Assembly (NCBI RefSeq): GCF_046119375.1
Contig: NW_027362769.1
Span: forward strand, 358,794,001-358,858,000
Length of the DNA: 64,000 nucleotides
Reading direction: 5' to 3'
Source of the DNA: Phyllobates terribilis
Taxonomy: Eukaryota
Shown here: positions 1,523 through 31,732 of the stretch, in pieces
How the letters are laid out: the number at the start of each line of letters is the position of its first letter
Position numbering within the stretch: the first letter of the stretch is position 1
Translations under genes and position numbers: made by a program
The notes under the pieces: model-generated
Databases searched by the model: none
What the model was told of the DNA's origin: nothing
Seen by the model: the letters and a program-made list of their open reading frames with translations, nothing else

Positions 1523-1544
1523 GTATATATATATATATATAGTA

Positions 1545-5360: not shown

Positions 5361-6269
5361 TCTACAACCCCCTCGTAAAACCACACAACATGAAATAAAT
5401 TGTTAACCATATGTTCGAACGTAATGAAATCCACAAATATTGACCTCTTTATAGTACAAGATCCAAATAATCTTAAAGTTGTCAGTATCTGCCTTTTGAA
5501 GGGGTTGTCTAGTTTATAAATCACATTTTGTAAAACAATATTAGGTTAGTATGCTCATGTAACCATTACATTGACTCTTGCTCTAGAAGACCAATAACCT
5601 TCATGCAAAACATAGATATACCACTTTTTATGTTGACTGTGTAATACTTTATTTACCCTGTGGTGGCGCTGTAGAGTGTAGAATGTAACAGTTGGTGCTA
5701 AGCTCCATCAGAGTTTACAGCTGAATTTTAGAGGTACAGAATGACATCCATTGTAATGTGGGCTCCTTTCTAACAAAACAGCCTATCCAAAAAAAAAACT
5801 GAAAGTAGTTCGGTAACAAGGTGGAGGACGACGCAAGATGATGGAGTTTCAAAATCCTTCCATCTAACTTACTCTCCTGCCTGAATGTAAATCAGGCAGC
5901 TCTCATAGAAGGGACAGAAGGAGAGGGGGTACAAAGAGGCTGCTCTCCAATGCTGAGATGTGACTGGAAAGGTAAGTAGGTGAAATGTAAGTATACAGTA
6001 TGTGTATAATGTGTGTTAATGTATGTGTGTAATGTGTATGTTTCCTATGTGTTTATGTGATATGTACAGTTGAAACCAGAAGTTTCCATACAGTATATAA
6101 AAAGACACATCTGCATGTTTTTTTCAATATCTGACATGAAATCAAAATAAACCTTTCCTGTTTTAGGTCAATTAGAATTACCACAATTTTTAATATTTGC
6201 CAAATGCCAGAATAATGAGAGAGAGAGAATGTTTTAAGGCATTTTTATTACTTACTGCAAAGTCAAAGG

Positions 6270-7403
6270 TGTAACGGGTCTGGTAGGCGGAACCTCTGAG
6301 CTACTATACAAGGGGGCGGTCCTTGTAAGGGAGCGGGTGGCGACCAGGGAAGACGGGCAGGCAGTCACAGCAGGTGACCGGGACAGTCTCTGGGTGAACG
6401 GGCAGGAGGTCACGGCAAGTGACTGGGACAGTCTCTGGGTAAACGGGCAGGAGGTCACAGCAAGTGACTGGGGCAGTCTCTGGGTGAACGGGCAGGAGGT
6501 CACAGCAAGTGACCGGGGCAGTCTCTGGGTGGACGGGCAGGAGGTCACAGCAAGTGACCGGGACAGTCTCTGGGTATAGGGTAGGTACGACCTGTGACGG
6601 CTGAGCCTCCAGGTAGGCTAGCAGGCGGATGACAGATGAGTGCTCCCAGGTGAGCAGGCGAGAGTCTCTGGAAAAGCAGGTGGTCACAGCACGTGACGGC
6701 AGAGCCTCCAGGTAGGCAAGCAGGCAGGTAGCGGAGGAGCGCTCCCAGGTGAGCGGGCAAGAGTCTCTGGAATAGCAGGTGGTCACAGCACGTGACGTCG
6801 GAGCCTCCAGGTAGGCAAGCAGGCAGGTAGCGGAGGAGCGCTCCCAGGTGAGCGGGCAAGAGTCTCTGGAATAGCAGGTGGTCACAGCACGTGACGGCGG
6901 AGCCTCCAGGTAGGCTAGCAGGCAGGTAGCAGAGGAGCGCTCCCAGGTGAGCGGGCAAGCTGGTCCATAGACAGACTGACAGGAGTAGGAAGGCAGACCG
7001 TCGGACCTCAGGCTAGCAAGCAGGTAGCAGGAATATCAGGCAGGAAACAGACAGCAAACTGGCAGGACTCTGGCAGGAATCAGGCAGGTAACTGGCAGGT
7101 AACTGGCAACGGGACCTGAGGGCTGAAGCAGAGTAGTGAACAGTGCAACAACATTGCTCGGGTACCTCCATTTTGGAGGAGGTGCCTTATATATGGTGAA
7201 GTCCTCCGGCCATTGGCCGGGGACTCCTTAGGACGGCGCGAGCGGCCCCTCTAAGAGGGAGGGAGCGCGCGCGCGCCCTAAGCACAGTGGCCGGGAAGGA
7301 GCGCGCGCTGCCAGCAGAGCGGGAGGAGGACGCCGGGCTCGGAGCAGAGAGGTGAGGGGAACAGCGTCCCTGCCTAGCAGAGGGCAGGGACGCCGACGCT
7401 ACA
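6270..7403 (-). repeat. Element A 3' LTR
   Basis: Near-identical to 11575-12708 (3 differences seen). Contains 45-bp (x~5) and 99-bp (x4) internal tandem repeats. Confidence 0.97.
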
Positions 7404-10400
7404 GTACCCCCCCCTTTAGGCCCCCCCTTTTTTAGGCCAGACAGAAATTTAGCAAGGATGAGAGGGGCATGGATGTTCTCTCGGGGCTCCCACGTTCTCT
7501 CTTCAGGACCAAACCCCTTCCAATCTACTAGAAAAAAGGTCTTCCCTCTTACCCTTTTGGTGGCCAGAATGTTCTCTACCTCAAATTCGTTTTCAGCGGA
7601 AACCAGAGCAGGAGGCGTGCCTGTAGACTTGGAAAAAGAGTTAAGTACCACAGGTTTGAGGAGAGATACATGGAAGGAGTTAGGGATCCGCAAGTTGGCC
7701 GGGAGTTTCAATTTATAGGCCACCGGGTTGATCTGACTGATGACCTCCAGAGGACCGATGAACCGAGGCCCTAACTTATAGGAAGGAATCTTGAGCCGGA
7801 CATACTTGGACGAGAGCCAGACCTTATCCCCTGGACGGAATTGAGGAGGATCCAGACGTTTTTTGTCAGCATGTCTTTTCATACGCTCGGATGACAGAAG
7901 GAGTGCGGACCGGGTACTCTCCCATATGGAGGAAAATTTGTTAACAAGAGATTCCGCAGCCGGATTGTCCACCGAGGTGGAGACGGGAAACGGGATCCGA
8001 GGATGCTGACCGAAGACTACAAAAAACGGGGATTTGGAGGAGGATTCGCTCTCGTGATTGTTGTACGAGAATTTGGCCCATGGCAGGAGATCCACCCAGT
8101 CAGAATGGTGGGCATTAACGAAGTGCCGGAGGTAACTGGTCAGGATCTGATTGATCCGCTCCACTTGACCATTAGACTGTGGGTGGTAAGCGGAGGAGAA
8201 GTCCAGGGTGACGTCTAGCAATTTACAAGTGGCTCTCCAGAAACGAGAAGTGAACTGTACCCCACGATCCGACACGATGTGACGGGGCAGGCCATGAAGA
8301 CGGAAGATGTGGCGGATAAAGTCTTTAGCCAGCTCGGGTGCAGACGGGAGGCCTGGCAGGGGAATGAAGTGAGCCATCTTGGAAAAGCGGTCAGCTACCA
8401 CCCAAATGACCGTACAACCGGCAGAGACGGGAAGATCAGTTATGAAGTCCATCGCTATATGCTGCCAGGGGGCAGCAGGTACTGGCAGAGGAAGGAGGCG
8501 ACCGGCTGGCAGGTGTCTCGGAACTTTGTTGCGGGCGCAGGACACACAGGCAGAAACAAAGTCTATTACATCCTTGTGCAGGTTAGGCCACCAGTAGTGC
8601 CAGGTAATAAGCTGGAGGGTCTTTTTCTGACCGGCGTGGCCAGCTAGTTTAGATGAATGACCCCAGTGTAGGATCTTCTCCCGATCAGGTACCGATACGA
8701 ACGTCTTACCGGGAGGGAGACGATTTAGACTCACGGGAGCCACCTGCATTACTCTGGCGGGATCGATGATATGTTTAGGTTCCTCCTCGAGGTCAGATAC
8801 CAGAAAGGATCGGGACAAGGCGTCCGCTTTGATGTTCTTGTAAGCCGGGCGAAAATGTAGAACAAAATCAAAGCGAGCAAAAAACAAGGACCACCGGGCT
8901 TGGCGCGGGTTAAGTCTCTGGGCATGCTGGAGGTAAGCCAAGTTCTTGTGGTCAGTGTAAATTATTACCGGATGAAGAGCCCCCTCGAGTAGGTAACGCC
9001 ACTCCTCCAATGCCAGCTTGATGGCCAATAACTCTCGGTCTCCTATGGAATAATTGCGCTCAGAAGAGGAGAAGAGTTTGGAGAAAAAGCCACAGGTTAC
9101 CATTCTCCCGGAAGATGATTTTTGAGTAAGTACAGCTCCAGCTCCAGAGGAGGAGGCGTCAACCTCCAGGAAGAACTGCTTGTTGCCGTCCGGACGATGC
9201 AGCACCGGGGCGGAAGAGAAGGCCTGTTTTAATGAAAGAAAGGCCTCCTCTGCTTCGGACGGCCACTCCTTGGGATTAGTACCCTTACGGGTGAGCGCGG
9301 AAATTGGGGCAGTCCGGGAAGAGAAGTGTGGTATGAAGAGGCGGTAGTAGTTGGCGAAGCCCAGGAACCGCTGAATGGCCTTCAACCCCTCCAGTCGGGG
9401 CCATTTCTCGATGGCAGACAGTTTCTCTGGATCCATTCGTAGGCCGGTCTGAGAAATAATGTAGCCCAAAAACGGAAGCGAGGTCTGCTCAAAGAGGCAC
9501 TTCTCATATTTAGCGAAGAGGTGATTCTGCCTGAGCCTGAGCAGGACCTGACGAACGTCCCTCCGGTGAGTCTGGAGATCCGGAGAGAAGACCAAGATGT
9601 CGTCCAGGTACACCACAACGCAGGAGTAGAGAAGGTCCCAGAAGATGTCATTGACCAACTCTTGAAAGACGGCAGGAGCGTTACAGAGACCAAAGGGCAT
9701 TACCAGATATTCATAGTGGCCGTCCCGGGTGTTGAATGCAGTCTTCCATTCATCCCCTTGACGGATACGGACCAGGTTGTACGCCCCACGGAGGTCCAGT
9801 TTGGTGAAGACTCTAGCCCCCCTCAGGCGATCAAATAATTCTGGAATGAGCGGAAGGGGGTACTTATTCTTCACCGTGATCTGGTTAAGGCCTCTATAGT
9901 CTATACAGGGACGGAGAGAGCCGTCCTTCTTTTTTACGAAGAAGAAGCCTGCTCCCGCCGGGGAGGTAGATTTCCGGATGAATCCCCTGGCCAAATTCTC
10001 CTCAATATATTCGGACATCGACCGGGTCTCAGCAGCGGACAATGGGTAAATACGCCCACGGGGAGGAGTAGTACCGGGTAACAGGTCGATAGGACAGTCG
10101 TATGGTCTATGAGGTGGTAATGTCTCTGCCTCCTTTTTATTAAAGACATCAGCAAATGACCAATAGGGAATCGGAAGTCCAGGTAGATTAGTTGGGGTAG
10201 GAGAAGGACGGACGGGACGAACAGGAACCAAACAAGTCTTATGACAGTCCTGTCCCCAGCGAAGGACTTCTCCGGTCTGCCAGTCAAGCACGGGTGCATG
10301 TCTCTGGAGCCAAGGTAGACCTAGTAAAAGGGCGTGAGAGAGTCCAGGCAGAACATGAAAAGAGATGCTCTCAGAATGCAGCATTCCCACCTGCAGAGTT

Positions 10401-10672
10401 ATGGATTCGGTGATGAGTTGGATGGGACGTGGTAAGAGGCCCCCATCCACAGCAGCGACAGATAATGGTACAGCCAGAGGTTTGGTGGGAATGCGGTATT
10501 TTTCTACCAGGGACTGTGAAATAAGATTCCCGGCCGCTCCAGAGTCAAGTTGGGCTAGTTCGAAATAACGATTCTCCCCGCAGATAATAGAGACTGACAG
10601 TAGCAGAGATGGAGAGGATTTATTCTTGTCTAGGTGGACCTCTCTGAGCGAACCTAGACACAGGCGTTTCCC
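7187..10672 (-). CDS. pol: Element A Pol (protease, RT, RNase H, integrase, chromodomain), entered by -1 frameshift
   Basis: The frame is open from the GGGAAAC slip site. LDSGAAG protease, YLDD RT, HHCC and DDE integrase, GPxF motif, EFEVENIL..VDWKGFGP chromodomain. Confidence 0.95.
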   Translation of the reverse strand, partial: GKRLCLGSLREVHLDKNKSSPSLLLSVSIICGENRYFELAQLDSGAAGNLISQSLVEKYRIPTKPLAVPLSVAAVDGGLLPRPIQLITESITLQVGMLHSESISFHVLPGLSHALLLGLPWLQRHAPVLDWQTGEVLRWGQDCHKTCLVPVRPVRPSPTPTNLPGLPIPYWSFADVFNKKEAETLPPHRPYDCPIDLLPGTTPPRGRIYPLSAAETRSMSEYIEENLARGFIRKSTSPAGAGFFFVKKKDGSLRPCIDYRGLNQITVKNKYPLPLIPELFDRLRGARVFTKLDLRGAYNLVRIRQGDEWKTAFNTRDGHYEYLVMPFGLCNAPAVFQELVNDIFWDLLYSCVVVYLDDILVFSPDLQTHRRDVRQVLLRLRQNHLFAKYEKCLFEQTSLPFLGYIISQTGLRMDPEKLSAIEKWPRLEGLKAIQRFLGFANYYRLFIPHFSSRTAPISALTRKGTNPKEWPSEAEEAFLSLKQAFSSAPVLHRPDGNKQFFLEVDASSSGAGAVLTQKSSSGRMVTCGFFSKLFSSSERNYSIGDRELLAIKLALEEWRYLLEGALHPVIIYTDHKNLAYLQHAQRLNPRQARWSLFFARFDFVLHFRPAYKNIKADALSRSFLVSDLEEEPKHIIDPARVMQVAPVSLNRLPPGKTFVSVPDREKILHWGHSSKLAGHAGQKKTLQLITWHYWWPNLHKDVIDFVSACVSCARNKVPRHLPAGRLLPLPVPAAPWQHIAMDFITDLPVSAGCTVIWVVADRFSKMAHFIPLPGLPSAPELAKDFIRHIFRLHGLPRHIVSDRGVQFTSRFWRATCKLLDVTLDFSSAYHPQSNGQVERINQILTSYLRHFVNAHHSDWVDLLPWAKFSYNNHESESSSKSPFFVVFGQHPRIPFPVSTSVDNPAAESLVNKFSSIWESTRSALLLSSERMKRHADKKRLDPPQFRPGDKVWLSSKYVRLKIPSYKLGPRFIGPLEVISQINPVAYKLKLPANLRIPNSFHVSLLKPVVLNSFSKSTGTPPALVSAENEFEVENILATKRVRGKTFFLVDWKGFGPEERTWEPRENIHAPLILAKFLSGLKKGGPKGGGTVASASLPSARQGRCSPHLSAPSPASSSRSAGSARSFPATVLRARARSLPLRGAARAVLRSPRPMAGGLHHI
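10612..10672 (-). promoter_or_regulatory. -1 ribosomal frameshift signal: G_GGA_AAC plus predicted H-type pseudoknot
   Basis: Slip heptamer at 10672-10666, 5-nt spacer, stem1 TGTCTAGGT/ACCTAGACA, stem2 GAGAGG/CCTCTC. Confidence 0.8.
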
Positions 10673-11561
10673 GACCTCTCCTGGCAGGTACGGATCCGGT
10701 GCTCCTTACTGCCACAGTAGAAGCAGCTCCCTGGTCGACCTGCATAGGCTCAGGAGAGTGTACCTGGGGAGAAACGGAGGGAGTGACGGGTTTCTGAAAA
10801 GTAGGAGCTAGACGTGGAAACCTCCTCTCACGGGTGACCTCTTTGGCACGCTCCTGGAACCGTAGGTCAATCCGGGTGGCAAGGGTTATTAAGTCATCGA
10901 GAGTGGTTGGAATGTCCCGACCGGCGAGTTCATCTTTAATACGGCCGGACAGACCCTCCCAGAAGACAGATACCAGAGCGTCGTTATCCCAAGCCAGCTC
11001 CGAGGCAAGGGTACGGAACCGTATGGCATATTGGCCCACGGTGAGATTTCGCTGGTGGAGGCGTAGCAGAGATGATGCGGATGAGGTCTTCCGTCCGGGT
11101 TCGTCGAAGACTTTCCGGAAAGCCGTGAGAAAGGCAGGCAAATCGGACACCAGGGGGTCTCCTCTCTCCCAAAGAGGATTTAGCCAGGCCAGGGCCTCCC
11201 CGGTGAGATGGGACATGATGAAGGCAATTTTGGCCCGGTCGGAGTTAAACTGGTGGGACAGGAGTTCAAAGTGCAGGGTGCACTGATTTATGAAGCCCCG
11301 AGCCTGAGCGGAGTCGCCTCCGAAGCGAGGAGGTGCAGAAAGCCGGGGTCCGGGGTAGGATACCATGGTATTGGTGGGCAGCGGAGCTGCCGGGTTGCGA
11401 GTCATGGCACTGGCGGTGGTTGCTGGTGGAGCAGTCAGAGTGTCCAGACGAGAATTGACATTCCGCAGGTGACCCAGGATGGACTCCTGTTGGGACCTCT
11501 GACGGGACAGTTCATGACAGAGGTCCGAGAGCGAGGGAGCTTGGGTGCCACCGGGTTCCAT
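10620..11561 (-). CDS. gag: Element A Gag (capsid), frameshifted upstream of the zinc knuckle
   Basis: PPRFGGD..FINQC..F..QF..D.AKI.FIMSHLTGEALAW capsid motif. The CFYCGSKEHRIRTC knuckle lies in a different frame after EPMQVD. Confidence 0.9.
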   Translation of the reverse strand: MEPGGTQAPSLSDLCHELSRQRSQQESILGHLRNVNSRLDTLTAPPATTASAMTRNPAAPLPTNTMVSYPGPRLSAPPRFGGDSAQARGFINQCTLHFELLSHQFNSDRAKIAFIMSHLTGEALAWLNPLWERGDPLVSDLPAFLTAFRKVFDEPGRKTSSASSLLRLHQRNLTVGQYAIRFRTLASELAWDNDALVSVFWEGLSGRIKDELAGRDIPTTLDDLITLATRIDLRFQERAKEVTRERRFPRLAPTFQKPVTPSVSPQVHSPEPMQVDQGAASTVAVRSTGSVPARRGRETPVSRFAQRGPPRQE

Positions 11562-11574
11562 GGCCCGAGCAAAC

Positions 11575-12708
11575 TGTAACGGGTCTGGTAGGCGGAACCT
11601 CTGAGCTACTATACAAGGGGGCGGTCCTTGTAAGGGAGCGGGTGGCGACCAGGGAAGACGGGCAGGCAGTCACAGCAGGTGACCGGGACAGTCTCTGGGT
11701 GAACGGGCAGGAGGTCACGGCAAGTGACCGGGACAGTCTCTGGGTAAACGGGCAGGAGGTCACAGCAAGTGACTGGGGCAGTCTCTGGGTGAACGGGCAG
11801 GAGGTCACAGCAAGTGACCGGGGCAGTCTCTGGGTGGACGGGCAGGAGGTCACAGCAAGTGACCGGGACAGTCTCTGGGTATAGGGTAGGTACGACCTGT
11901 GACGGCTGAGCCTCCAGGTAGGCTAGCAGGCGGATGACAGATGAGTGCTCCCAGGTGAGCAGGCGAGAGTCTCTGGAAAAGCAGGTGGTCACAGCACGTG
12001 ACGGCAGAGCCTCCAGGTAGGCAAGCAGGCAGGTAGCGGAGGAGCGCTCCCAGGTGAGCGGGCAAGAGTCTCTGGAATAGCAGGTGGTCACAGCACGTGA
12101 CGGCGGAGCCTCCAGGTAGGCAAGCAGGCAGGTAGCGGAGGAGCGCTCCCAGGTGAGCGGGCAAGAGTCTCTGGAATAGCAGGTGGTCACAGCACGTGAC
12201 GGCGGAGCCTCCAGGTAGGCTAGCAGGCAGGTAGCAGAGGAGCGCTCCCAGGTGAGCGGGCAAGCTGGTCCATAGACAGACTGACAGGAGTAGGAAGGCA
12301 GACCGTCGGACCTCAGGCTAGCAAGCAGGTAGCAGGAATATCAGGCAGGAAACAGACAGCAAACTGGCAGGACTCTGGCAGGAATCAGGCAGGTAACTGG
12401 CAGGTAACTGGCAACGGGACCTGAGGGCTGAAGCAGAGTAGTGAACAGTGCAACAACATTGCTCGGGTACCTCCATTTTGGAGGAGGTGCCTTATATATG
12501 GTGAAGTCCTCCGGCCATTGGCCGGGGACTCCTTAGGACGGCGCGCGCGGCCCCTCTAAGAGGGAGGGAGCGCGCGCGCGCCCTAAGCACAGTGGCCGGG
12601 AAGGAGCGCGCGCTGCCAGCAGAGCGGGAGGAGGACGCCGGGCTCGGAGCAGAGAGGTGAGGGGAACAGCGTCCCTGCCTAGCAGAGGGCAGGGACGCCG
12701 ACGCTACA
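11575..12708 (-). repeat. Element A 5' LTR (TATATAAG at 12498-12491)
   Basis: TG..CA termini; adjacent PBS-like sequence at 11564-11572. Confidence 0.97.
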
Positions 12709-12869
12709 AAAGGTTTATATACACAAAGATTACTATGCCTTTAAACAATTCTGGACTGCCCATATGATGATGTCATGTGTTTGGAAGCTTCTGATAGGTT
12801 TTTGGCAACATCTCAGTTAATTAGAGACACACCTGTGGGTGTATTTTAATGCACACCTAAAACACACTG

Positions 12870-14812
12870 TGTTACGCTCGCGCCCGGACTAACTGGCGTG
12901 AGCATGATTAGTGATCCCACTGTACCATGAACTGGGGAGTGCCTGGAGGGGCGTAACTAAGTATCTACCCGATCCGACCAAGGTCGCACGGCGGCTAACG
13001 ACTCCGTGAAATAAGGAGGAACCGAGCAGAGGGACCAGGTGCGACTCCAGGTCAGACCCCGGTCACAGTTGTTGACCCACACCGGGGAATGCAGGAACAG
13101 GCAGGTAGGCTGGCACACAGGCAGGTGGGTATTGGCAAGTACGGCTGGTATGCTAGCAGGTGGGCACTGGCAAGCACGGCTGGTATGTAGGCAGGAGGGG
13201 GTACTGGCCGGCTCGGCTGGAGTGCCAACAGGGAGGCACTAGCAGGTTGGAGCGCAGACTGGATAGAGGCCAGTACAGACTGGGAGACAGGAACAAAGCC
13301 GCATTAGCCGTAGACAGGCAAAGCAGAAAGGAACCGCCGGAGCGGTGGACTAGACAGAGCAAAGGGGAACCGCCGAAGCGGTGAGCAAGCAGAGCAGAAC
13401 TAAACTGCAGATGCGGCGAACAAGGCAGAGCAGAAAGGAACCGCCGGAGCGGTAACAAGATGAGCAAAGCAAAACCCGCAGATGCGGTAGACAAGCTAAG
13501 CAGAGCAAAACCTGCAGATGCGGTAGACAAGCTTGAGCAGAGCAAAACCCGCAGATGCGGTAGACAAGCTGAGCAGAGCAAAACCCGCAGATGCGGTAGA
13601 AAAGCTGAGCAGAGCAAAACCGCAGACGCGGTAGACTAGCTGAGCAGAGCAAAACTGCAGATGCGGTAGACAAGCTTGAGCAGAGCAAAACCCGCAGATG
13701 CGGTAGACAAGCTGAGCAGAGCAAAACCCGCAGATGCGGTAGACAAGCTGAGCAGAGCAAAACTCGCAGATGCGGTAGACAAGCTGAGCAGAGCAAAACC
13801 GCAGACGCGGTAGACTAGCTGAGCAGAGCAAAACCGCAGGTGCGGAGAACAAGCAGAGCAGAGCAAAACCGCAGGCGCGGAGAACAAGCAGAGCGAAGCA
13901 AAACCGCAATCGCGGTGAACAAGTAGAGCGAAGCAAAGCCACAGGTGTGGAGAACAAGCAGAGAGGAGCAAAAACCGCAAGCTCGGTGAACAGACAAAGC
14001 GGAGCAGAACCGCAAGCGCGGTGGACAAAATAGAGCAGAGCAGGACTGACAGTGCAAGCAGAAAGGCCTGGGCTCTGTTCACATGGCACAGATAAGAAAA
14101 TACAGTAAAATGGCTAGAACACAGAAGGGAGATACAGAGGAAGGGAAAAGAGACAAACAGAACCAGATACACACAAGGTACTTACAATGAAGTAGCGAGT
14201 GGACACAAAACTCACAAACAGAAGTACAGAGACAACAAATTGGAGCTAGGTGCAGGTTCAGACAATGCAGGAAAGGGAGGGTACGGACATAGAAACAAAA
14301 CAGGTAACAGGCTAAGGTACAGTTCAGACAGGAACTGCTACTGCAAGAAATACAGGAGCGAGTCTGGGTATACGGCCCCCAGAATGGCGGACTGACAGGC
14401 TAGGGTACAGTTCAGACAGGAACTGCTACTGCAAGGGATAAATGAACCAGTCTGGGAATACAGTCCCCAGAGTGGCAGAAACAGACTAGAAGACAGAGGT
14501 AACAGGACAGGACCTGGCAATACAGAATGCAAAGACAAACTGAGTGAAGATGTTGCTCAGGCGCCTCCTACTGGGTGAAGGGGGTTTAAATATCCAGGGA
14601 CTCACAGCAATAGGCAGGAGACATATTAGGGGTGTGCCCACAGCAGCTATAAGAAGCAGGAAGTAACCGGGCCGCCGCCCTAAGCAGTCAGACCAGAGCA
14701 TGAACACAGTAAGAACAGGAGCACGGCTTACAAACTGGACTGAAGGCTAAGATTGCGATCTTGCATAGTGGGAGATGGTGCACTATGCAAGTACGCCGCC
14801 AGGTATGTTACA
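12870..14812 (-). repeat. Element B LTR-1 (1943 bp) with 36-bp minisatellite
   Basis: TGTTACGCTCG..TATGTTACA termini; GCAGATGCGGTAGACAAGCTGAGCAGAGCAAAACCC repeats. Confidence 0.95.
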
Positions 14813-16616
14813 GTACCCCCCCCCCCTTACGCCCCAATTTCTTCAAGCCTGCAAGGGTCATCTGTAGAGAATTAGGAGGCCAATCCTTCTCTTCAAGAGG
14901 ATTACTTCTTCTGTCCACTAGAGGAAACGAAACTGGTCTCATCATCTTGGTGACTAGGATGCTTCCTCCCATCGAGCCATCCTCACTAACAGATGAAGTG
15001 GGAGAAGTACCAGTAACAGCACAAAGGAAAGTCTCTCTCCATTTGTTATCAGGAAGCACCCTGGTGGATTCAGGAGACAACTGGAGGTCCTCTGCCTGGT
15101 TGGAGGGGTGCAGAGACTCGGGGGTTACCACCGCCATGACATACACTTTGCCAAGCTTACTGGAAGAGATGGGCGTCGTACCAGGTACCGGGTGTAGAGA
15201 AGTCTCTCTCCGTTTATCAGGTAGCACCCCGGGGAATTCAGGAGGCAACTGGGGTTCCTCCGCCTAGTTGGAGGGCGGCAGAGACTTGGAGGTAGGTGCC
15301 GCCTTTATGGACTTGAGACCAGATTTATTAGAGATGGAGGGTCCTGGCTTTGGGACCATCTTCAATCTGGTTTCAGGGATGACATGTCTGTGAGGCGGGG
15401 CGGTACCTGAAGCCAGATCATTGGTACAATCGTCGAGACTGTGTGGGGACATCGCCTCCGCTTCTCTTCCTTTGGAGACTTCAGCGCACAGCGAGTCAGC
15501 GACTAGCAGATCTGGTGAAGAAGAAACTGCTGACTGTCCTGAAGATATGGGGACTGGACACCCCTTGTACTTTAGCAGTCCCCCAGGATACACCATGCAG
15601 GATCTCCAGATCTGAGCGGGTACTAGAAGTCTCCGTTCCGGACGACCTGTGGGTAAGCCAGTCAGCACCTGGAATGTGAACTTCTTCATGAGTAATGCTC
15701 CAATCTGGAGCTTAATTTGTACAGACATATTTTGACTGTTTTTGAGTAGGGCTCGTCCTTCAGCTGACAATGCCCAAACCGGCTTCTGAAGTTGTCGGAC
15801 GGGAATCAGACACCGACTCTTCAAGGTTTTAAGCCCGAAACTTCCGGTTAATCCGAGGCCTTCACTTGCCACGGAGACAGTCATGGTCATCTGTGGAGAG
15901 GAAACACTAACACCAAGGGCAGCCTCTCCTACAGGCCTAATGTCTAGGGATTCTCCAACCTTCACTGGACAAAGACCGTCAGGGGGTCCCAAACAACCGC
16001 AGCGGGACCGCAATCCGATTTTGTGACTGAGTTCTGGCTTCTGCTTTGCCTGACGAACATAGTCATCCTTCATGGATTCTGTGCGGAAAACTGCCTCTAC
16101 AGGCTGGGATACAGGAGGTCTTTGGGAGGACAGAACCTGGCGTGACGGTTTACCTCTACGCCTTGCTCGTCTGGACTGCCTCTTGAGGTTGGGAAGAGAA
16201 GTATTCTGTGGAGCATAGTCATCCTGTCTGGATTCTGGGTGGGCAGCAGTCTCTTCGGGCAGGAGGACTGGTAGGCTGCCTACACACATTACCCATCGGG
16301 GCTGCTCCGGGATATTGGGAAGGGAAGCTTTAGCAGAGGCTTCAGGGTTAGGGTCATCGAAGACCATTAGAAAGGCCACCAGGAAGGCCTGCGGGTCAAA
16401 GACGATAGGATCCCATGCTTCCCATAGGGGGGTGATCCATTTCAAGGCATCACTCGCTAGGTAGGACATCATAAATGCCAATTTAACATGATCGGTAGGA
16501 AAATAGTGAGCATAGAACTTGAAATGCAGCATGCATTGCTCCACAAACGCACGGCTTCGTTTTGGTTCCCCATAGTACCGTGGTGGATCCGCAGGAACAA
16601 GTGCTGATAGGTCCAT
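14808..16616 (-). CDS. Element B copy 1: Gag-capsid/degenerate-protease/repeat ORF (450 aa, then TAG, then an in-frame extension)
   Basis: N-terminal PPRYYGEP..FVEQC..HF..D.VK.AFMMSYL..DAL.W capsid motif. IKLQIGALL..FTFQVLTGL aligns with the element A protease C-terminus. ORFs 15264-16616 and 14808-15248 share one frame. Confidence 0.8.
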
Positions 16617-16758
16617 TTGGGCTGGTGCCTAAATCACCTGGGCCATAGCTTGAGAAAAAAAAAAATTTCTTGGTATACGTATTCGCCAGACAAGGATTCA
16701 AAATGTCTCTGAGAGCGAAAGGCTGTGGGGCTCAACGGGAACCATGGCCTGAGCAAAC

Positions 16759-18557
16759 TGTTACGCTCGCGCCCGGACTAACTGGCATGAGCATGATTAG
16801 TGATCCCACTGTACCATGAACCGGGGAGTGCCTGGAGGGGCGTAACTAAGTATCTACCCGATCCGACCAAGGTCGCACGGCGGCTAACGACTCCGTGAAC
16901 CAAGGAGGAACCGAGCAGAGGGACCAGGTGCGACTCCAGGTCAGACCCCGGTCACAGTTGTTGACCCACACCGGGGAATGCAGGAACAGGCAGGTAGGCT
17001 GGCACACAGGCAGGTGGGTATTGGCAAGTACGGCTGGTATGCTGGCAGGTGGGCACTGGCAAGTACGGCTGGTATGTAGACAGGAGGGGGTACTGGCCGG
17101 CACGGCTGGAGTGCCAACAGGGAGGCACTAGCAGGTTGGAGCGCAGACTGGATAGAGGCCAGTACAGACTGGGAGACAGGAACAAAGCCGCATTAGTGGT
17201 AGACAGGCAAAGCAGAAAGGAACCGCCGGAGTGGTGGACTAGACAGAGCAAAGGGGAACCGCCGAAGCGGTGAGCAAGCAGAGCAGAACTAAACCGCAGA
17301 TGCGGCGAACAAGGCAGAGCAGAAAGGAACCGCCGGAGCGGTAACAAGCTGAGCAAAGCAAAACCCGCAGATGCGGTAGATAAGCTAAGCAGAGCAAAAC
17401 CTGCAGATGCGGTAGACAAGCTTGAGCAGAGCAAAACCCGCAGATGCGGTAGACAAGCTGAGCAGAGCAAAACCCGCAGATGCGGTAGACAAGCTGAGCA
17501 GAGCAAAACTCGCAGATGCGGAGACAAGCTGAGCAGAGCAAAACCGCAGACGCGGTAGACTAGCTGAGCAGAGCAAAACCGCAGGTGCGGAGAACAAGCA
17601 GAGCAGAGCAAAACCGCAGGCACGGAGAACAAGCAGAGCGAAGCAAAACCGCAATCGCGGTGAACAAGTAGAGCGAAGCAAAGCCACAGGTGTGGAGAAC
17701 AAGCAGAGAGGAGCAAAAACCGCAAGCTCGGTGAACAGACAAAGCGGAGCAGAACCGCAAGCGCGGTGGACAAAATAGAGCAGAACAGGACTGACAGTGC
17801 AAGCAGAAAGGCCTGGGCTCTGTTCACATGGAACAGATAAGAAAATACAGTAAAATGGCTAGAACACAGAAGGGAGATACAGAGGAAGGGAAAAGAGACA
17901 AACAGAACCAGATACACACAAGGTACTTACAATGAAGTAGCGAGTGGACACAAAACTCACAAACAGAAGTACAGAGACAACAAATTGGTGCTAGGTGCAG
18001 GTTCAGACAATGCAGGAAAGGGAGGGTACGGACATAGAAACAAAACAGGTAACAGGCTAAAGTACAGTTCAGACAGGAACTGCTACTGCAAGAAATACAG
18101 GAGCGAGTCTGGGTATACGGCCCCCAGAATGGCGGACTGACAGGCTAGGGTACAGTTCAGACAGGAACTGCTACTGCAAGGGATAAATGAACCAGTCTGG
18201 GAATACAGTCCCCAGAGTGGCAGAAACAGACTAGAAGACAGAGGTAACAGGACAGGACCTGGCAATACAGAAAGCAAAGACAAACTGAGTGAAGGTGTTG
18301 CTCAGGCGCCTCCTACTGGGTGAAGGGGGTTTAAATATCCAGGGACTCACAGCAATAGGCAGGAGACGCATTAGGGGTGCGCCCACAGCAGCTATAAGAA
18401 GCAGGAAGTAACCAGGCCGCCGCCCTAAGCAGTCAGACCAGAGCATGAACACAGTAAGAACAGGAGCACGGCTTACAAACTGGACTGAAGGCTAAGATTG
18501 CGATCTTGCATAGTGGGAGATGGTGCACTATGCAAGTACGCCGCCAGGTATGTTACA
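16759..18557 (-). repeat. Element B LTR-2 (1799 bp, shared middle LTR)
   Basis: Same termini as LTR-1; 144 bp (4 x 36) shorter. Confidence 0.95.
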
Positions 18558-20358
18558 GTACCCCCCCCTTACGTCCCAATTTCTTCAAGCCTGCAAGGGT
18601 CATCTGTAGAGAATTAGGAGGCCAATCCTTCTCTTCAAGAGGATTACTTCTTCTGTCCACTAGAGGAAACGAAACTGGTCTCATCATCTTGGTGACTAGG
18701 ATGCTTCCTCCCATTGAGCCATCCTCAGTAACAGATGAAGTGGGAGAAGTACCAGGAACAGCACAAAGGAAAGTCTCTCTCCATTTGTTATCAGGAAGCA
18801 CCCTGGTGGATTCAGGAGACAACTGGAGGTCCTCTGCCTGGTTGGAGGGGTGCAGAGACTCGGGGGTTACCACCGCCATGACATACACTTTGCCAAGCTT
18901 ACTGGAAGAGATGGGCGGCGTACCAGGTAACGGGTGTAGAGAAGTCTCTCTCCATTTATCAGGTAGCACTCCGGGGAATTCAGGAGGCAACTGGGGTTCC
19001 TCCGCCTAGTTGGAGGGCGGCAGAGACTTGGAGGTAGGTGCCGCCTTTATGGACTTGAGACCAGATTTATTAGAGATGGAGGGTCCTGGCTTTGGGACCA
19101 TCTTCAATCTGGTTTCAGGGATGACATGTCTGTGAGGCGGGGCGGTACCTGAAGCCAGATCATTGGTACAATCGTCGAGACTGTGTGGGGACATCGCCTC
19201 CGCTTCTCTTCCTTCGGAGACTTCAGCGCACAGCGAGTCAGCGACTAGCAGATCTGGTGAAGAAGAAACTGCTGACTGTCCTGAAGATATGGGGACTGGA
19301 CCCCCCTTGTACCTTAGCAGTCCCCCAGGATACATCATGCAGGATCTCCAGACCTGAGCGGGTACTAGAAGTCTCGGCTCCGGACGACCTGTGGGTAAGA
19401 CAGTCAGCACCTGGAATGTGAACTTCTTCATGAGTAATGCTCCAATCTGGAGCTTAATTTGTACAGACATATTTTGACTGTTTTTGAGTAGGGCTCGTCC
19501 TTCAGCTGACAATGCCCAAACCGGCTTCTGAAGTTGTCGGACGGGAATCAGACACCGACTCTTCAAGGTTTTAAGCCCGAAACTTCCGGTTAATCCGAGG
19601 CCTTCACTTGCCACGGAGACAGTCATGGTCATCTGTGGAGAGGAAACACTAACACCAAGGGCAGCCTCTCCTACAGGCCTAATGTCTAGGGATTCTCCAA
19701 CCTTCGCTGGACAAAGACCGTCAGGGGGTCCCAAACAACCGCAGCTTGACCGCAATCCGATTTTGTGACTGAGTTCTGGCTTCTGCTTTGCCTGACGAAC
19801 ATAGTCATCCTTCATGGATTCTGTGCGGAAAACTGCCTCTACAGGCTGGGATACAGGAGGTCTTTGGGAGGACAGAACCTGGCGTGACGGTTTACCTCTA
19901 CGCCTTGCACGTCTGGACTGCCTCTTGAGGTTGGGAAGAGAAGTATTCTGTGGAGCATAGTCATCCTGTGTGGATTCTGGGTGGGCAGCAGTCTCTTCGG
20001 GCAGGAGGACTGGTAGGCTGCCTACACACATTACCCATCGGGGCTGCTCCGGGATATTGGGAAGGGAAGCTTTAGCAGAGGCTTCAGGGTTAGGGTAATC
20101 GAAGACCATTAGAAAGGCCACCAGGAAGGCCTGCAGGTCAAAGACGATAGGATCCCATGCTTCCCATAGGGGGGTGATCCATTTCAAGGCATCACTCGCT
20201 AGGTAGGACATCATAAATGCCACTTTAACCTGATCGGTAGGAAAATAGTGAGCATAGAACTTGAAATGCAGCATGCATTGCTCCACAAACGCACGGCTTC
20301 GTTTTGGATCCCCATAGTACCGTGGTGGATCCGCAGGAACAAGTGCTGATAGATCCAT
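18553..20358 (-). CDS. Element B copy 2 of the Gag/dead-protease fusion ORF
   Basis: 450 aa, about 15 aa differences from copy 1, same in-frame TAG at 19006-19008. Confidence 0.8.
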
Positions 20359-20732
20359 TTGGGCTGGTGCCTAAATCACCTGGGCCATAGCTTGAGAAAA
20401 AAAACATTTTCTTGGTGTACGTATTCGCCAGACAAGGATTCAAAATGTCTCTGAGAGCGAAAGGCTGTGGGGCTCAACGGGAACCATGGCCTGAGCAAAC
20501 TGTTACGCTCGCGCCCGGACTAACTGGCGTGAGCATGATTAGTGATCCCACTGTACCATGAACCGGGGAGTGCCTGGAGGGGCGTAACTAAGTATCTACC
20601 CGATCCGACCAAGGTCGCACGGCGGCTAACGACTCCGTGAACCAAGGAGGAACCGAGCAGAGGGACCAGGTGCGACTCCAGGTCAGACCCCGGTCACAGT
20701 TGTTGACCCACACCGGGGAATGCAGGAACAGG

Positions 20733-23700
20733 TGTTAGAACTCTCCTGTTAGGTTTTTTTTAGTTTGCTGGTCACATGACCATTTTTGCCTATTTAATCC
20801 GGCTCCGCCCTCCTGGTTTTGCTGGACTTCATTGTATTTACTACTCTTGAGCTAGCTTGGTGCTCTGTTGCCGTTCTCTGTTAGTTTTGCTAGGTCTTCT
20901 GACCTCTATGCTTTTTGTTGTGTGTTTGTCTTTGACTGCTACTATTTCTGCTAGGAGGTGTCCAACTTATCCCAGTCCCTAGTTCTTGTAGGGATCCCTC
21001 CCTCACATCTATAGGTCTTCGTTCAGACTAGCCGAGGACTTTAGCGGGTCTGATCGCAGGATCAGGTTCCCCGTTACATCGTAGGGATCTAGTTTAGTTC
21101 TATTGTAGGGACAGTTCTCCTGTCTTTCCTTAGTTCCGTAGCAGATCATAACAGTAAGTCCAGCCTTAAAAGAAAAAAAAAAAAAATTTTCTCTAAGGAA
21201 AGACCTCCAGTTTTCCTTCATGGTCTCGGTTCAAGATTTGGCTCAACACTTGCAGGGACTCTCTCTGGAGGTGACCAAGCTCCAACAACACGTGAGTAGC
21301 TGTTCTGGAGCACATTTTGTGGAACCAAAAGTACGTCTGCCTGATTTATTTTTTGGCGAACAACAATATTTTTTTTCTTTTAAAAATGCTTGTTTATTGT
21401 ATTTTCGTTTGAGACCCGGATCCTCTGGTGATGAATCACAGCGCATAGGGTTCATAATGTCACTTTTGAGCAAAGATCCTCAGGGATGGGCCTTCTCTCT
21501 CCAACCTAGTGATCCGTGCTTTAGATCAGTGGATAGTTTTTTTTCTGCTTTGGGTTTGTTGTATGATGATCCTGATCGTGTCTCATCTGCTGAGTCTGAA
21601 TTGAGACGTTTGAGGCAGGGATCAGGTAATGTGGAAAAATATTGTTTTCACTTCCGTCGGTGGTCTGCCCAGGTGGGGTGGAACGATTCAGCTTTGAAAA
21701 GCTTGTTTCTTGCAGGGCTAGGTGAAAGGGTTAAGGATTTACTGATTGCTTATCCCACACCTGGAAACTTGCAGGAGGCAATGCAATTAGCTATACGGGT
21801 GGACAGGAGACTGCGTGCAAGGGTTAATGAGAGCAAATCCTCTGCTATGTCAGCTCCGAGTCTTGAGAGGGTCTGTGCTGACAATGGAGAGCCGATGGAG
21901 ATTGGGGCGATGGCACCCCGCTCTCAGGAAAAAGATCGCAGGCTTTCTGAAGGCTTGTGCTTCTATTGCGGAAATTCTGGTCATTTCATTAAGAACTGTG
22001 TGCTTCGTATGAAGAAAGAAAAAAAAATGGTCAGTTATGCCCGTATTGCCTGTTTAAATTCTAAGGGAGTATTCCTATCTGCCACTACTGCTGCTCAGGA
22101 TGAGTTAATTGAATTTCGGGTATTTGTGGATTGTGGTTCTACTCTGAATGTGATTGATGGGGGATTCTTGGAAAAACTTAGATTAGAACCTAAAACTTTG
22201 TCATCCCCTATTGCTGTGGTTTCTGTTGATGGCTCTCCCTTGAAGAGTGTTACTCATAAGGTCTGTGAATTTCCCCTCACTATTAATGGTATTCACCAAG
22301 AAAATTTGGATTTGGTGGTATTGGATAATTTGCCTTCTCCAGTAATATTGGGGTTACACTGGTTAAAATTGCACAATCCTGTACTGGATTGGTCTACCAA
22401 TGAAATTAAGTCCTGGAGCCCTAAGTGTTATGACAAGTGTTGTAACGGACGTATTGCCGCTGTGGATAAAGGGGAATTGCCTGTACCTATTCAGGATTTT
22501 TGGAGAGTTTTTTCTGAGGAGGAGTCACAAATTTTGCCTCCCCATAGAGACTATGATTGTACCATTGAATTTGTCCCTGGAGCGACTCTTCCTAAAAGTC
22601 GTTTATTTAATCTTACTATTCCTGAGAGAAAGGCTTTGGAGGAATACATACAGACAAGCTTGGCCGCCGGTCACATTAGGCCTTCCAAGTCTCCTGTGGC
22701 TGTTGAATTTTTTTTTGTAAAAAAAAAAGATGGCGGTTTACGTCCTTGTCTGGACTTTCGTGAGATTAATAAAATTACTGTACGCAATCCTTACCCACTG
22801 CCATTGATTCCTGATTTATTTAACCAGTTAGTGGGGGCCAAGTGGTTCTCTAAAATTGATCTCCGGAGGGCATACAATCTGTTGCGCATGAAGGAGGGTG
22901 ATGAATGGAAGACTGCTTTTAACACTCCTGTGAGTCATTTTGAGAATCTGGTTATGCCTTTTGGTCTTACCAATGCTCCAGCATTTTTTCAGAATCTTAT
23001 TAATGACATCCTTAGACCTTTAATCGGCAAAAATGTGGTTGTGTATTTGGATGACATTCTGATTTATTTGCCTGATCTGGAGTCTCATTGGCGGAGCGTA
23101 CATGAGGTATTACAGTTATTAATGGACAATTCGCTTTTTGCTAAGCTGGAGAAATGTGAGTTTGCTGTACAGAGAATTAGTTTTTTGGGCTACATTATCT
23201 CCAGTGAAGGTTTTGAGATGGACCCGGTTAAAGTTCAAGCTGTGCAGGAATGGCCTAGGCCTATTGGTTTGAAATCGATACAGAGGTTTTTGGGTTTCGC
23301 CAATTATTACAGAAAATTCATAAAAAAAATTTCTATTATTGTCAAACCGCTGACCGATCTCACCAGGAAAGGTGCTAATGCGGTTCAGTGGACTTCTGAG
23401 GCCATTGAAGCTTTTGTGTTTCTAAAGGAGAGGTTCACCTCTGCTCCCATCCTTATGCAGCCTGATGTGACTAAGCCGTTTTTGGTTGAGGTTGATGCTT
23501 CTTCGGTGGGGGTCGGTGCGGTGTTGTCTCAGGAAAACAAGGATGGAGTACATCCCTGTGCCTTTTTTTCAAAAAAATTTTCTGAGACTGAACTTAATTA
23601 CGATATTGGTAATCGGGAATTGCTGGCGATTAAACTCGCATTTGAACACTGGCGTCACCTCTTGGAAGGTGCTGAATTTCCCATTCAGGTTTTCACTGAT

Positions 23701-25723
23701 CATAAAAATCTGATCTATCTTGATGCTGCCAAGCGCTTGAATGCCCGTCAGGCTAGGTGGGCACTTTTTTTCTCGCAGTTTAATTTTTCCGTTACTTACA
23801 TCCCGGGTACCAAGAATGTTAAAGCGGATGCTTTGTCTCGCAGCTTTTCTCCCATGGTCGGTGTTGAGGAGGAAGAGGAGAGCATTTTACAAGAAGGTGT
23901 TGTGATTGCTGCTTTGGACTCCATTTTGGAGGATGAGATTCTTAAAGCTCAGGAGAATGCCCCATCTAACACTCCCCATGGGAGGTTGTTTGTGCCTAGG
24001 ACCTTTAGGAGAGATTTGTTTGTTGAGTGTCATGAGTCTCGGTTGGCAGGTCATCCAGGAATTTCTGAGACCAAGAGACTTGTGGGTCGCAGTTTTTGGT
24101 GGCCTGGATGGCAGAAGGAAGTCATTAAGTGGGTGCGCCAATGTACTGTGTGTGCTAGATCCAAGTCTTCGCATGCTCCTGCTGCGGGGTTGCTTTGCCC
24201 TCTGGAGGTTCCTAGTGCACCTTGGACACATCTGGCTATGGACTTTATTGCTGACCTTCCCCCCTCTGAAGGTTTCACGGTCATCTGGGTGGTCGTGGAC
24301 CGTTTTAGCAAGATGTGTCACTTGGTTCCCTTCATCAAACTGCCTTGCGCTAAGACACTCGCTAAGGCCTTTGTCAAGGAAATTGTCAGACTACATGGTG
24401 TTCCTACTGACATTGTTTCTGATAGGGGACCTCAGTTCGTGGCTCGTTTTTGGCGTGCCTTTTGTGACAGGTTGGGAGTACATTTGTCATTTTCATCTGG
24501 ATATCATCCTGAGTCTAATGGCCAGACAGAAAGGAAGAACCAGGATGTTGAGCAGTTCTTGCGTTGTTTTGTGGCAGACAATCAAGAGGGGTGGTCTGAG
24601 TTTCTGCCACTTGCTGAATTTGCTCTTAACAACCATACATCCTCTTCTGCTGGGTGTTCGCCTTTTTTTTGTTGTTCTGGGAGACATCCGTCTTTTGGGT
24701 CATTCTCCAAATTGGTTTCGGCTGTGCCTGAGGAGGAGAGTTTTTCCGGTGATTTGGAGAGAGTTTGGACGGATGTGCGTGGTAATCTTCAGGAGGCTAA
24801 CAAAAAATCTAAGAGGTACTTTGATAGGAAACGGCAAGAGGTTTTGTTTGCTGTTGGTGACATGGTTTGGTTGTCCTCTAAGAATCTGCGATTGAGGATT
24901 CCTTCTAAAAAATTGGGTCCCAAGTTCGTAGGGCCCTTTAAGGTGCTTCAGATAGTTAACCAATCTGCTGTTAGGTTGGAGGTTCCTACGTCCTGGAAGA
25001 TTAACCCGGTGTTTCATGTTTCTCTGTTGAAAAAAGCTGATGTGTCTGATGGTGACGCCTCTGCCACTGTTCCTCCGGTGGTGGAGGACGGGGAATATGA
25101 AATTTCCCGCATCCTAAATTCTAGACGGTATAGAGGGAGTTTGCAGTATCTCGTCGCTTGGAAGGGTTTCGGACCTGAGGATAACTCATGGGTGAGGGCG
25201 GATGATGTTTATGCTTCCAGACTTGTCAGAGCGTTTCACAGGAGGTTTCCTGGTAAGCCTGGGCCTAGGGGATCCGGAGGATCCTCTTAGAAGAGGGGGT
25301 ACTGTTAGAACTCTCCTGTTAGTTTTTTTTTAGTTTGCTGGTCACATGACCATTTTTGCCTATTTAATTCGGCTCCGCCCTCCTGGTCTTGCTGGACTTC
25401 ATTGTATTTACTACTCTTGAGCTAGCTTGGTGCTCTGTTGCCGTTCTCTGTTAGTTTTGCTAGGTCTTCTGACCTCTATGCTTTTTGTTGTGTGTTTGTC
25501 TTTGACTGCTACTATTTCTGCTAGGAGGTGTCCAACTTATCCCAGTCCCTAGTTCTTGTAGGGATCCCTCCCTCACATCTATAGGTCTTCGTTCAGACTA
25601 GCCGAGGACTTTAGCGGGTCTGATCGCAGGATCAGGTTTCCCGTTACATCGTAGGGATCTAGTTTAGTTCTATTGTAGGGACAGTTCTCCTGTCTTTCCT
25701 TAGTTCCGTAGCAGATCATAACA
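20733..25723 (+). mobile_element. Element C: Ty3/Gypsy chromovirus nested in element B LTR-3
   Basis: 421-bp LTRs (20733-21153 and 25303-25723, 4 differences seen), ACAGG TSD, PPT AGAAGAGGGGG at about 25289-25299. Confidence 0.98.
21220..25290 (+). CDS. gag-pol: Element C single Gag-Pol ORF (1356 aa)
   Basis: CFYCGNSGHFIKNC knuckle, VDCG protease, YLDD RT, RNase H, HHCC/DDE integrase, EYEISRIL..VAWKGFGP chromodomain. Confidence 0.95.
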   Translation: MVSVQDLAQHLQGLSLEVTKLQQHVSSCSGAHFVEPKVRLPDLFFGEQQYFFSFKNACLLYFRLRPGSSGDESQRIGFIMSLLSKDPQGWAFSLQPSDPCFRSVDSFFSALGLLYDDPDRVSSAESELRRLRQGSGNVEKYCFHFRRWSAQVGWNDSALKSLFLAGLGERVKDLLIAYPTPGNLQEAMQLAIRVDRRLRARVNESKSSAMSAPSLERVCADNGEPMEIGAMAPRSQEKDRRLSEGLCFYCGNSGHFIKNCVLRMKKEKKMVSYARIACLNSKGVFLSATTAAQDELIEFRVFVDCGSTLNVIDGGFLEKLRLEPKTLSSPIAVVSVDGSPLKSVTHKVCEFPLTINGIHQENLDLVVLDNLPSPVILGLHWLKLHNPVLDWSTNEIKSWSPKCYDKCCNGRIAAVDKGELPVPIQDFWRVFSEEESQILPPHRDYDCTIEFVPGATLPKSRLFNLTIPERKALEEYIQTSLAAGHIRPSKSPVAVEFFFVKKKDGGLRPCLDFREINKITVRNPYPLPLIPDLFNQLVGAKWFSKIDLRRAYNLLRMKEGDEWKTAFNTPVSHFENLVMPFGLTNAPAFFQNLINDILRPLIGKNVVVYLDDILIYLPDLESHWRSVHEVLQLLMDNSLFAKLEKCEFAVQRISFLGYIISSEGFEMDPVKVQAVQEWPRPIGLKSIQRFLGFANYYRKFIKKISIIVKPLTDLTRKGANAVQWTSEAIEAFVFLKERFTSAPILMQPDVTKPFLVEVDASSVGVGAVLSQENKDGVHPCAFFSKKFSETELNYDIGNRELLAIKLAFEHWRHLLEGAEFPIQVFTDHKNLIYLDAAKRLNARQARWALFFSQFNFSVTYIPGTKNVKADALSRSFSPMVGVEEEEESILQEGVVIAALDSILEDEILKAQENAPSNTPHGRLFVPRTFRRDLFVECHESRLAGHPGISETKRLVGRSFWWPGWQKEVIKWVRQCTVCARSKSSHAPAAGLLCPLEVPSAPWTHLAMDFIADLPPSEGFTVIWVVVDRFSKMCHLVPFIKLPCAKTLAKAFVKEIVRLHGVPTDIVSDRGPQFVARFWRAFCDRLGVHLSFSSGYHPESNGQTERKNQDVEQFLRCFVADNQEGWSEFLPLAEFALNNHTSSSAGCSPFFCCSGRHPSFGSFSKLVSAVPEEESFSGDLERVWTDVRGNLQEANKKSKRYFDRKRQEVLFAVGDMVWLSSKNLRLRIPSKKLGPKFVGPFKVLQIVNQSAVRLEVPTSWKINPVFHVSLLKKADVSDGDASATVPPVVEDGEYEISRILNSRRYRGSLQYLVAWKGFGPEDNSWVRADDVYASRLVRAFHRRFPGKPGPRGSGGSS

Positions 25724-26909
25724 ACAGGCAGGTAGGCTGGCACACAGGCAAGTGGGTATTGGCAAGTACGGCTGGTATGCTGGCAGGTGGGCACTGGCAA
25801 GTACGGCTGGTATGTAGGCAGGAGGGGGTACTGGCCGGCACGGCTGGAGTGCCAACAGGGAGGCACTAGCAGGTTGGAGCGCAGACTGGATAGAGGCCAG
25901 TACAGACTGGGAGACAGGAACAAAGCCGCATTAGTGGTAAACAGGCAAAGCAGAAAGGAACCGCCGGAGCGGTGGACTAGACAGAGCAAAGGGGAACCGC
26001 CGAAGCGGTGAGCAAGCAGAGCAGAACTAAACCGCAGATGCGGTGAACAAGTAGAGCGAAGCAAAACCACAGGTGTGGAGAACAAGCAGAGAGGAGCAAA
26101 CACCGCAAGCTCGGTGAACAGACAAAGCGGAGCAGAACCGCAAGCGCAGTGAACAGACAGAGCGGAGCAGAACAGCAAGCGCGGTGGACAAAATAGAGCA
26201 GAACGGGACTGACAGTGCAAGCAGAAAGGACAGGGCTCTGTTCACATGGAACAGATAAGAAAATACAGTAAAATGGCTAGAACACAGAAGGGAGATACAG
26301 AGGAAGGGAAAAGAGACAAACAGAACCAGATACACACAAGGTACTTACAATGAAGTAGCGAGTGGACACAAAACTCACAAACAGAAGTACAGAGACAACA
26401 AATTGGAGCTAGGTGCAGGTTCAGACAATGCAGGAAAGGGAGGGTACGGACAGAGCAACAAAACAGGTAACAGGCTAAGGTACAGTTCAGACAGGAACTG
26501 CTACTGCAAGGGATAAATGAACCAGTCTGGGAATACAGTCCCCCGAGTGGCAGAAACAGACTAGAAGACAGAGGTAACAGGACAGGACATGGCAATACAG
26601 AATGCAAAGACAAACTGAGTGAAGGTGTTGCTCAGGCGCCTCCTACTGGGTGAAGGGGGTTTAAATATCCAGGGACTCACAGCAATAGGCTGGAGACGCA
26701 TTAGGGGTGCGCCCACAGCAGGTATAAGAAGCAGGAAGCAACTGGGCCGCCGCCCTAAGCAGTCAGACCAGAGCATGAACACAGTAAGAACAGGAGCACG
26801 GCTTACAAACTGGACTGAAGGCTAAGATTGCGATCTTGCATAGTGGGAGATGGTGCACTATGCAAGTACGCCACCAGGTATGTTACACACTGCTTCTTTG
26901 TGTAGCATC

Positions 26910-31700: not shown

Positions 31701-31732
31701 GGGCTTTATTTTTGTCTATATGCAGGAATATA

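Follow-up and report, generated by a model that had tools for sequence, protein, structure and literature searches.

The window analysed here, a 64,000-nucleotide stretch of the Phyllobates terribilis genome (NCBI RefSeq assembly GCF_046119375.1, 10.6 Gb; contig NW_027362769.1, positions 358,794,001 to 358,858,000, forward strand), contains three long terminal repeat (LTR) retrotransposons, A, B and C, in which the primer-binding site (PBS) complements a segment of the element's own LTR. Self-alignment of the window resolves them as a nest: C lies inside the first LTR of B, and A, B and C all lie between inverted repeats that we take, from the style of the sequence, to be those of a Tc1-like transposon (Table 1). 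A and C are Ty3/gypsy chromoviruses, with protease, reverse transcriptase (RT), RNase H and integrase in that order and a C-terminal chromodomain; in both, the Pfam models RVT_1, RT_RNaseH, rve, SH3_Tf2-1 and Chromo score above cut-off. TG...CA LTRs, a purine tract and 5-bp target-site duplications (A, CCTTT; C, ACAGG; B, outer CAGTG) are further chromovirus hallmarks. The Gag of A, the zinc knuckle of which is out of frame in the window copy, has PEG10 as its sole PDB match. Element B (26887 to 12870, minus strand) is built as LTR-internal-LTR-internal-LTR, that is, two gag-only units in tandem inside one target-site duplication with the middle LTR common to both, and it resembles the tandems formed by Tf1 without integrase (PMC11042837). 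The 450-amino-acid frame of B has no family match except DUF4939; as pol is absent, B is placed by its PBS and gag likeness only.

Table 1. Features of the nested elements in the window (positions are those of the window).
Feature	Position	Strand	Details
Terminal inverted repeat around the whole nest	6065..6273, partner 27925-28133	.	inverted repeat I3, 209 nt, 91%
Element A 3' LTR	6270..7403	-	1134 bp, 99.7% identity to 5' LTR; target-site duplication CCTTT
Element A pol frame	7187..10705	-	protease, RT, RNase H, integrase, SH3, chromodomain (Pfam)
Element A gag	10620..11561	-	GGGAAAC slippery heptamer 3' of zinc knuckle
Element A cap-opposite C	11562	-	invariant base directly past duplex, opposite predicted cap
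Element A PBS	11563..11572	-	2 nt past LTR
Element A 5' LTR	11575..12708	-	
Element A predicted self-primer	12459..12468	-	first 10 RNA nt; first base A in window copy, G in family
Element A TATA motif	12492..12498	-	first T 30 bases 5' of predicted start
Element B last LTR	12870..14812	-	
Element B internal region, second copy	14813..16758	-	gag-like open reading frame (DUF4939), no RT; PBS 16747-16756, cap-opposite C 16746
Element B middle LTR	16759..18557	-	common to both tandem units; TATA 18331-18337, predicted self-primer 18298-18307
Element B internal region, first copy	18558..20500	-	PBS 20489-20498, cap-opposite C 20488
Element B first LTR	20501..26887	-	interrupted by C (20501-20732 + 25724-26887); TATA 26661-26667, predicted self-primer 26628-26637
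Element C 5' LTR	20733..21153	+	421 bp, 99% to 3' LTR; TATA-like 20791-20797, predicted self-primer 20821-20829; target-site duplication ACAGG
Element C predicted helix, LTR-end strand	21123..21133	+	pairs with leader 21193-21203; one Tf1-like flanking duplex; p = 0.010 versus 200 shuffles
Element C single Gag-Pol frame	21142..25290	+	CCHC, protease, RT, RNase H, integrase, SH3, chromodomain
Element C PBS	21156..21164	+	2 nt past LTR; cap-opposite C 21165
Element C 3' LTR	25303..25723	+	purine tract directly 5'

A sequence-only reading of the window had placed each PBS 2 nt (GT) past the 5' LTR and its complement in the LTR at, or one base after, the 31st base counted from the first T of the TATA motif. 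All twelve coordinates that it gave for PBS, LTR complement and TATA hold base for base: the LTR ends lie at 11575 in A, at 16759 and 20501 in B and at 21153 in C, GT separates each of them from the PBS, and the 31st base is 12468 (A), 18307 and 26637 (B) and 20821 (C), with the 9-bp pairing of A beginning one base later. The usual duplex of family A is 10 bp long with G as its first base at the 31st base (8 perfect copies); the window copy reaches only 9 bp because both of its LTRs have A instead of G there. We consider it very probable that A, B and C are Tf1/sushi-type LTR retrotransposons without a transfer RNA (tRNA) site, in which the first 9-10 bases of the predicted RNA pair 2 bases past the 5' LTR and prime reverse transcription. 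What is observed directly is the element anatomy, the pairing, the fixed TATA distance, the covariation and an invariant C past the duplex.

To place the window copies in a genome-wide context, 120 stretches of 10 kb were picked, blind to the primer site and with long open frames preferred, from the top 150 matches of five Pfam searches. The 121 inputs gave 59 candidate LTR pairs; 11 without an exact 5-bp duplication were removed, and one further element (L083) and B of the window were added, leaving 50 elements (48 with RT and exact duplication). Among those removed, L020, L085 and L137 nevertheless carry a 10-base duplex, and the others have mis-called ends or, in the case of L070, a plant-type contig. 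Pairing was scored as the best match of PBS positions +3 to +12 (+3 to +11 in family C) to the element's own LTR. Of the 50 elements, 39 have a perfect match and 49 a match with no more than one non-Watson-Crick pair; the 3' LTR restores perfect pairing in 4 of the 11 imperfect cases. For comparison, 788 of 211,064 internal 9-mers (0.37%) find a perfect complement anywhere in their own LTR by chance. A TATA-like motif begins 27-33 bases upstream of the match in 41 of 50, as against 2.8% of LTR positions in the background; position -1, directly before the match, holds a pyrimidine in 49 elements (T 42, C 7, G 1), and the +1 base is a purine in 49 and G in 48.

The survey yields 12 different perfect duplexes, spread over at least 8 RT lineages in a quick tree, and PBS-primer pairings across families are perfect in 0 of 132 combinations (mean, 57% paired). 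Eight of the ten duplex positions (3-10) occur with 2-4 pair types, and positions 1-2 are always G-C and C-G. The sequence-only reading had drawn its covariation from a single compensatory change between A and B. That change is real on both sides, but it is weak alone: the PBS step (CG>CA) and the LTR step (CG>TG) are both CpG transitions, which CpG decay would yield on both sides without selection, and A cannot be aligned with B across the internal regions. Followed across genomic copies, as had been proposed, the covariation is retained, with transversions elsewhere carrying it. Within family A, 16,016 LTR-PBS junctions were collected and a second pattern returned 9 with a changed base at PBS +7. 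Where this base is A, the LTR has the matching T in 5 of 6 (a T>A transversion; the five include a neighbouring pair at a distance of 9.5 kb); where it is C, the LTR is matched in 0 of 3, as expected from mutation after insertion. The matched T>A transversion is better evidence for covariation than the A-to-B change.

These data bear directly on whether a host tRNA, whole or cleaved, docks at the PBS and the LTR match is incidental. As a rule LTR elements are primed by a tRNA, and this genome has examples: all 10 integrase-before-RT elements with an LTR pair, which we take to be Gmr1-like, have TGG at most 3 bases from the LTR and a self-complement of at most 6 bases (an eleventh has no LTR pair), and two elements on small contigs carry the plant-type TGGTATCAGAGC. 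A and B also have a TGG, at offset 14. This triplet, however, belongs to the Gag start context and is without the G at position 16 that the invariant C61 of tRNAs would require, and TGG occurs within the first 7 positions past the LTR in 0 of 50 elements. The twelve PBS types each match their own LTR and no other, and therefore a fixed host RNA is no explanation. Because TGG is missing and the duplex covaries, the tRNA alternative falls, and we regard it as highly improbable. Four features support the self-priming independent of tRNA that the sequence-only reading had put forward: TGG is absent, 49 of 50 elements pair with their own LTR, the TATA spacing is fixed, and 8 of the 10 duplex positions covary between families. 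An Rfam search also located two clusters of large tandem tRNA gene arrays (G000:C1:817.2-817.9 Mb and C11:574-575.8 Mb), the 30 fetched loci of which are only Lys-TTT. One lineage (D; L055, L130, L138 and L139) was considered as a tRNA relic, as about 10 bases of its PBS are like the plant-type tRNA-Met PBS of L068; the idea is not supported, as the lineage is nested, not basal. Despite the resemblance, the PBS of lineage D pairs with its own LTR.

More distant relatives were sought by scanning metagenomes with the RT of element C, and 80 loci (41-53% identity) were kept. Searching them for ACA directly before a self-complement of 10 bases yielded 32 rows from 25 loci. At 14 of these loci, the LTR ends of which are taken from the motif and not from LTR pairs, the same offset-2 duplex is found in different letters, with a pyrimidine at -1, A at +1 and mostly a TATA-like motif upstream; the remaining rows (other offsets, low complexity, plant-type PBSs) were treated as chance. 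In quick trees the 14 loci form one clade with 100% support within the group that holds the elements of this genome, and the self-pairing elements of genome and metagenomes group together (98% in SH-aLRT, an approximate likelihood-ratio test of the Shimodaira-Hasegawa type) apart from TGGTATCA-type elements and the presumed Gmr1-like outgroups. The best SH3_Tf2-1 matches in the assembly lie on unplaced contigs of 40-55 kb: C5097, C6167 and C6743 (L070, L068 and L069, respectively) and some 30 more of the C3xxx-C7xxx series. Both L068 and L069 combine LTRs longer than 2 kb with the plant-type TGGTATCAGAGC PBS and cluster with plant-type elements, an indication of plant DNA in the assembly. Near-identical chromovirus copies lie densely packed at G000:C4:752.2-753.4 Mb, in what appears to be a duplicated block.

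A further regularity concerns the base directly past the duplex on the PBS side: all 50 elements have C there, whereas the base that follows is A in 33, T in 14 and C in 3, and the two spacer bases vary. C occupies this place in 13 of the 14 metagenome loci too, and since their predicted RNA starts with A, the C does not belong to the GC motif; nor has it a partner in the genome, the -1 base of the LTR being T or C. RT copies the 7-methylguanosine (m7G) cap as C (PMC3562004), and Tf1 complementary DNA often retains a copy of the PBS at its 3' end (PMC11042837). We propose that the invariant C faces the m7G cap, and that it would either pair with the cap during priming or arise when plus-strand synthesis runs off a capped primer; a plus strand ending in the PBS and C must match its template at second-strand transfer, and the PBS would therefore have to carry the C. 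That the C is a reverse-transcribed or paired cap is likely. The broader proposition is that, in self-priming chromoviruses from vertebrates to metagenomes, this C answers the cap as an eleventh templating or pairing base, so that the genome would record the transcript start to the nucleotide, with priming across loops of up to 1.6 kb; we judge the case for it to be evenly balanced. Several observations pull the other way. None of the 11 PBS-bearing copies of the old, CpG-decayed L011 lineage has C past the duplex, where they read A or G, and L195 reads A there. The counts come from related lineages and are not independent, and in A and B the C also belongs to the Kozak context. Copying of a primer variant into the PBS was not seen: among 94 LTRs with A at +1, 10 of the first 30 fetched are 5' LTRs and all have C at PBS +12, and this C is kept at four further loci with A at +1, one of which has A in both LTRs. 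Our literature search found no statement of a cap-opposite C in self-priming elements; the primary Tf1 papers lay outside that search and may already have it. The cap-opposite C is new here, a small and testable addition.

On the model of Tf1, RNA polymerase II would start at the purine 30 bases past the TATA motif, the capped 5' end would fold back across a loop of 0.3-1.6 kb onto the PBS, and the element's RNase H would cut behind the duplex, leaving RT to extend the freed 3' end; element B, which is without RT, would depend on copying in trans. From primer to PBS, the loop measures 326-1648 nt (median, 619) in the elements of this genome versus 104-160 nt in 11 measurable metagenome loci. 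In A and B it is full of 45-, 99- and 35-bp tandem repeats (window 11575-12340 and 16759-17900), and its length differs widely among copies, with the duplex retained. A helix in which the leader past the PBS pairs with the LTR's last 70 bases, scored against 200 shuffles, reaches p <= 0.05 in 27 of 50 elements, from six lineages that include C and with differing sequences. A perfect or near-perfect 8-bp inverted repeat lies between TATA and the predicted start in A-type LTRs (window 12467-12490, minus strand) and covers the first two RNA bases. Such a hairpin was rejected as a general feature: it is strong in A-type lineages, but most other lineages lack it, and p <= 0.05 is found in 16 of 50 elements and 0 of 14 metagenome loci. 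Lineage D alone has a poly(A) hexamer, some 24 bases away from the end of the LTR.

Several results weigh against self-priming as laid out here. The RNA start at the 31st base is a prediction from TATA spacing, and 9 of the 50 elements have no canonical TATA (two families with TTAA there and one decayed copy). No clean duplex was found in the three metagenome relatives with full LTR pairs (L235, L242 and L256), and the host tRNA genes retrieved, from the 30 fetched loci, are of the Lys-TTT type only. The helix between leader and LTR end is below significance in the A, A-like, B and D lineages (window A, p = 0.37; window B, p = 0.23) and is found in 1 of 13 metagenome loci; the other Tf1-type helix has z below -2.5 in 2 of 15. 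Pseudoknot-free folding of 9 leaders favours the primer helix in 4 (C included), partially in 1 and not at all in 4 (window A included), although such folding is unable to show both helices because primer and flanking helices cross. Assembled transcript contigs from four runs place neither a start nor an end on element C and give no evidence either way.

Part of this evidence would also fit a primer that is the LTR segment yet internal to the RNA, with transcription starting further upstream and the RNA cut on both sides, or with a second RNA molecule supplying the segment. The predicted nature of the start leaves room for this, as do the leaders in which folding does not favour the primer helix (4 of 9), and the loops of this genome, far above those of the metagenome relatives, are so long that pairing between two packaged RNAs is plausible. 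However, the pairing starts at the pyrimidine/purine step 30 bases past TATA and stops there though both strands continue, and the unpaired invariant C fits a cap at exactly the first paired base; we therefore think an internal primer very unlikely. The duplex could also be kept for packaging, dimerization or control of Gag translation, with priming achieved in another way, as in A and B it ends one base before the AUG and in several lineages the flanking helix spans the Gag start. Yet in genome and metagenomes alike it lies exactly 2 bases past the LTR end, where minus-strand synthesis must begin, whatever the distance to the AUG, and no other primer site exists, which makes a role of that kind without priming very hard to credit. 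Priming by the element's own RNA 5' end remains the reading that we favour.

Elsewhere in the window, at 1537-3172, 31730-33385 and 43590-46169, there are more Tc1/mariner-type transposase frames, two of them with long inverted repeats. Tandem repeats of 67-70 bp form long inverted arms at 37438-40016, in the manner of Foldback elements or miniature inverted-repeat transposable elements, and a 472-codon open frame at 59140-60558 (minus strand) has no Pfam match.

Self-priming has been shown only in yeast Tf1 and was proposed for vertebrates from few sequences; this genome is a large natural test, with 12 covarying duplexes, fixed promoter spacing and tRNA-primed controls as its material, in families of which A alone counts at least 16,000 copies. 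If the cap-opposite C is real, it would predict start sites to the base and serve as a second marker for finding self-priming elements, and the cap would stay on the primer and be read in replication. The vertebrate members of the Tf1/sushi group are said to have been treated by Butler et al. 2001. In Tf1, RNase H cuts between bases 11 and 12 (PMC7175516) and a three-duplex ('pretzel') structure is required (PMC10085805). Self-priming is described as a shared trait of the Tf1/sushi group, in fungi and vertebrates alike (PMC10085805, PMC6317226, PMC4600332), and is proposed for Tj1, Tosmo1-3 and Tcry1; PMC3601003, PMC2864245 and PMC12786077 provided context only, and our literature search found no relevant paper on self-priming in amphibians. 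Self-priming in the plant Tcn1 clade and TAR copia elements was predicted by the same criterion, a complement to the 5' LTR of at least 10 bases that starts 0-5 bases past the LTR (Neumann et al. 2019, PMC6317226); that survey concerns other hosts, and its available sections report no TATA spacing, covariation test or cap-opposite base.

Among known systems, the elements described here are like Tf1 and Tf2 of Schizosaccharomyces pombe in being chromoviruses with a PBS complementary to the RNA's 5' end, which is predicted here, and not to a tRNA (PMC7175516, PMC4600332, PMC10085805). They differ from Tf1 in having a duplex of 9-10 nt versus 11, a loop of 326-1648 nt that is often filled with tandem repeats, and a CCHC knuckle, which is absent from the fission-yeast elements (PMC10085805). 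The two flanking helices of Tf1 are only partly supported here, and cleavage and priming, shown in Tf1, are predictions for these elements. The vertebrate V-clade (sushi-ichi and the Amn elements) is similar in its vertebrate-type host, chromodomain, CCHC motif, -1 slippery site (found in A), a Gag akin to PEG10 and DUF4939, and a self-primer predicted in print. Membership of the V-clade is suggested by indirect signs, namely the PEG10 match, DUF4939 and GGGAAAC in A. Unlike the V-clade, many lineages here, C included, have a single Gag-Pol frame, and B is a non-autonomous tandem. The core mechanism is already in print as a proposal for vertebrate Tf1/sushi elements; the covariation makes that proposal much firmer, and in this way a known proposal is strengthened and no new mechanism is opened.

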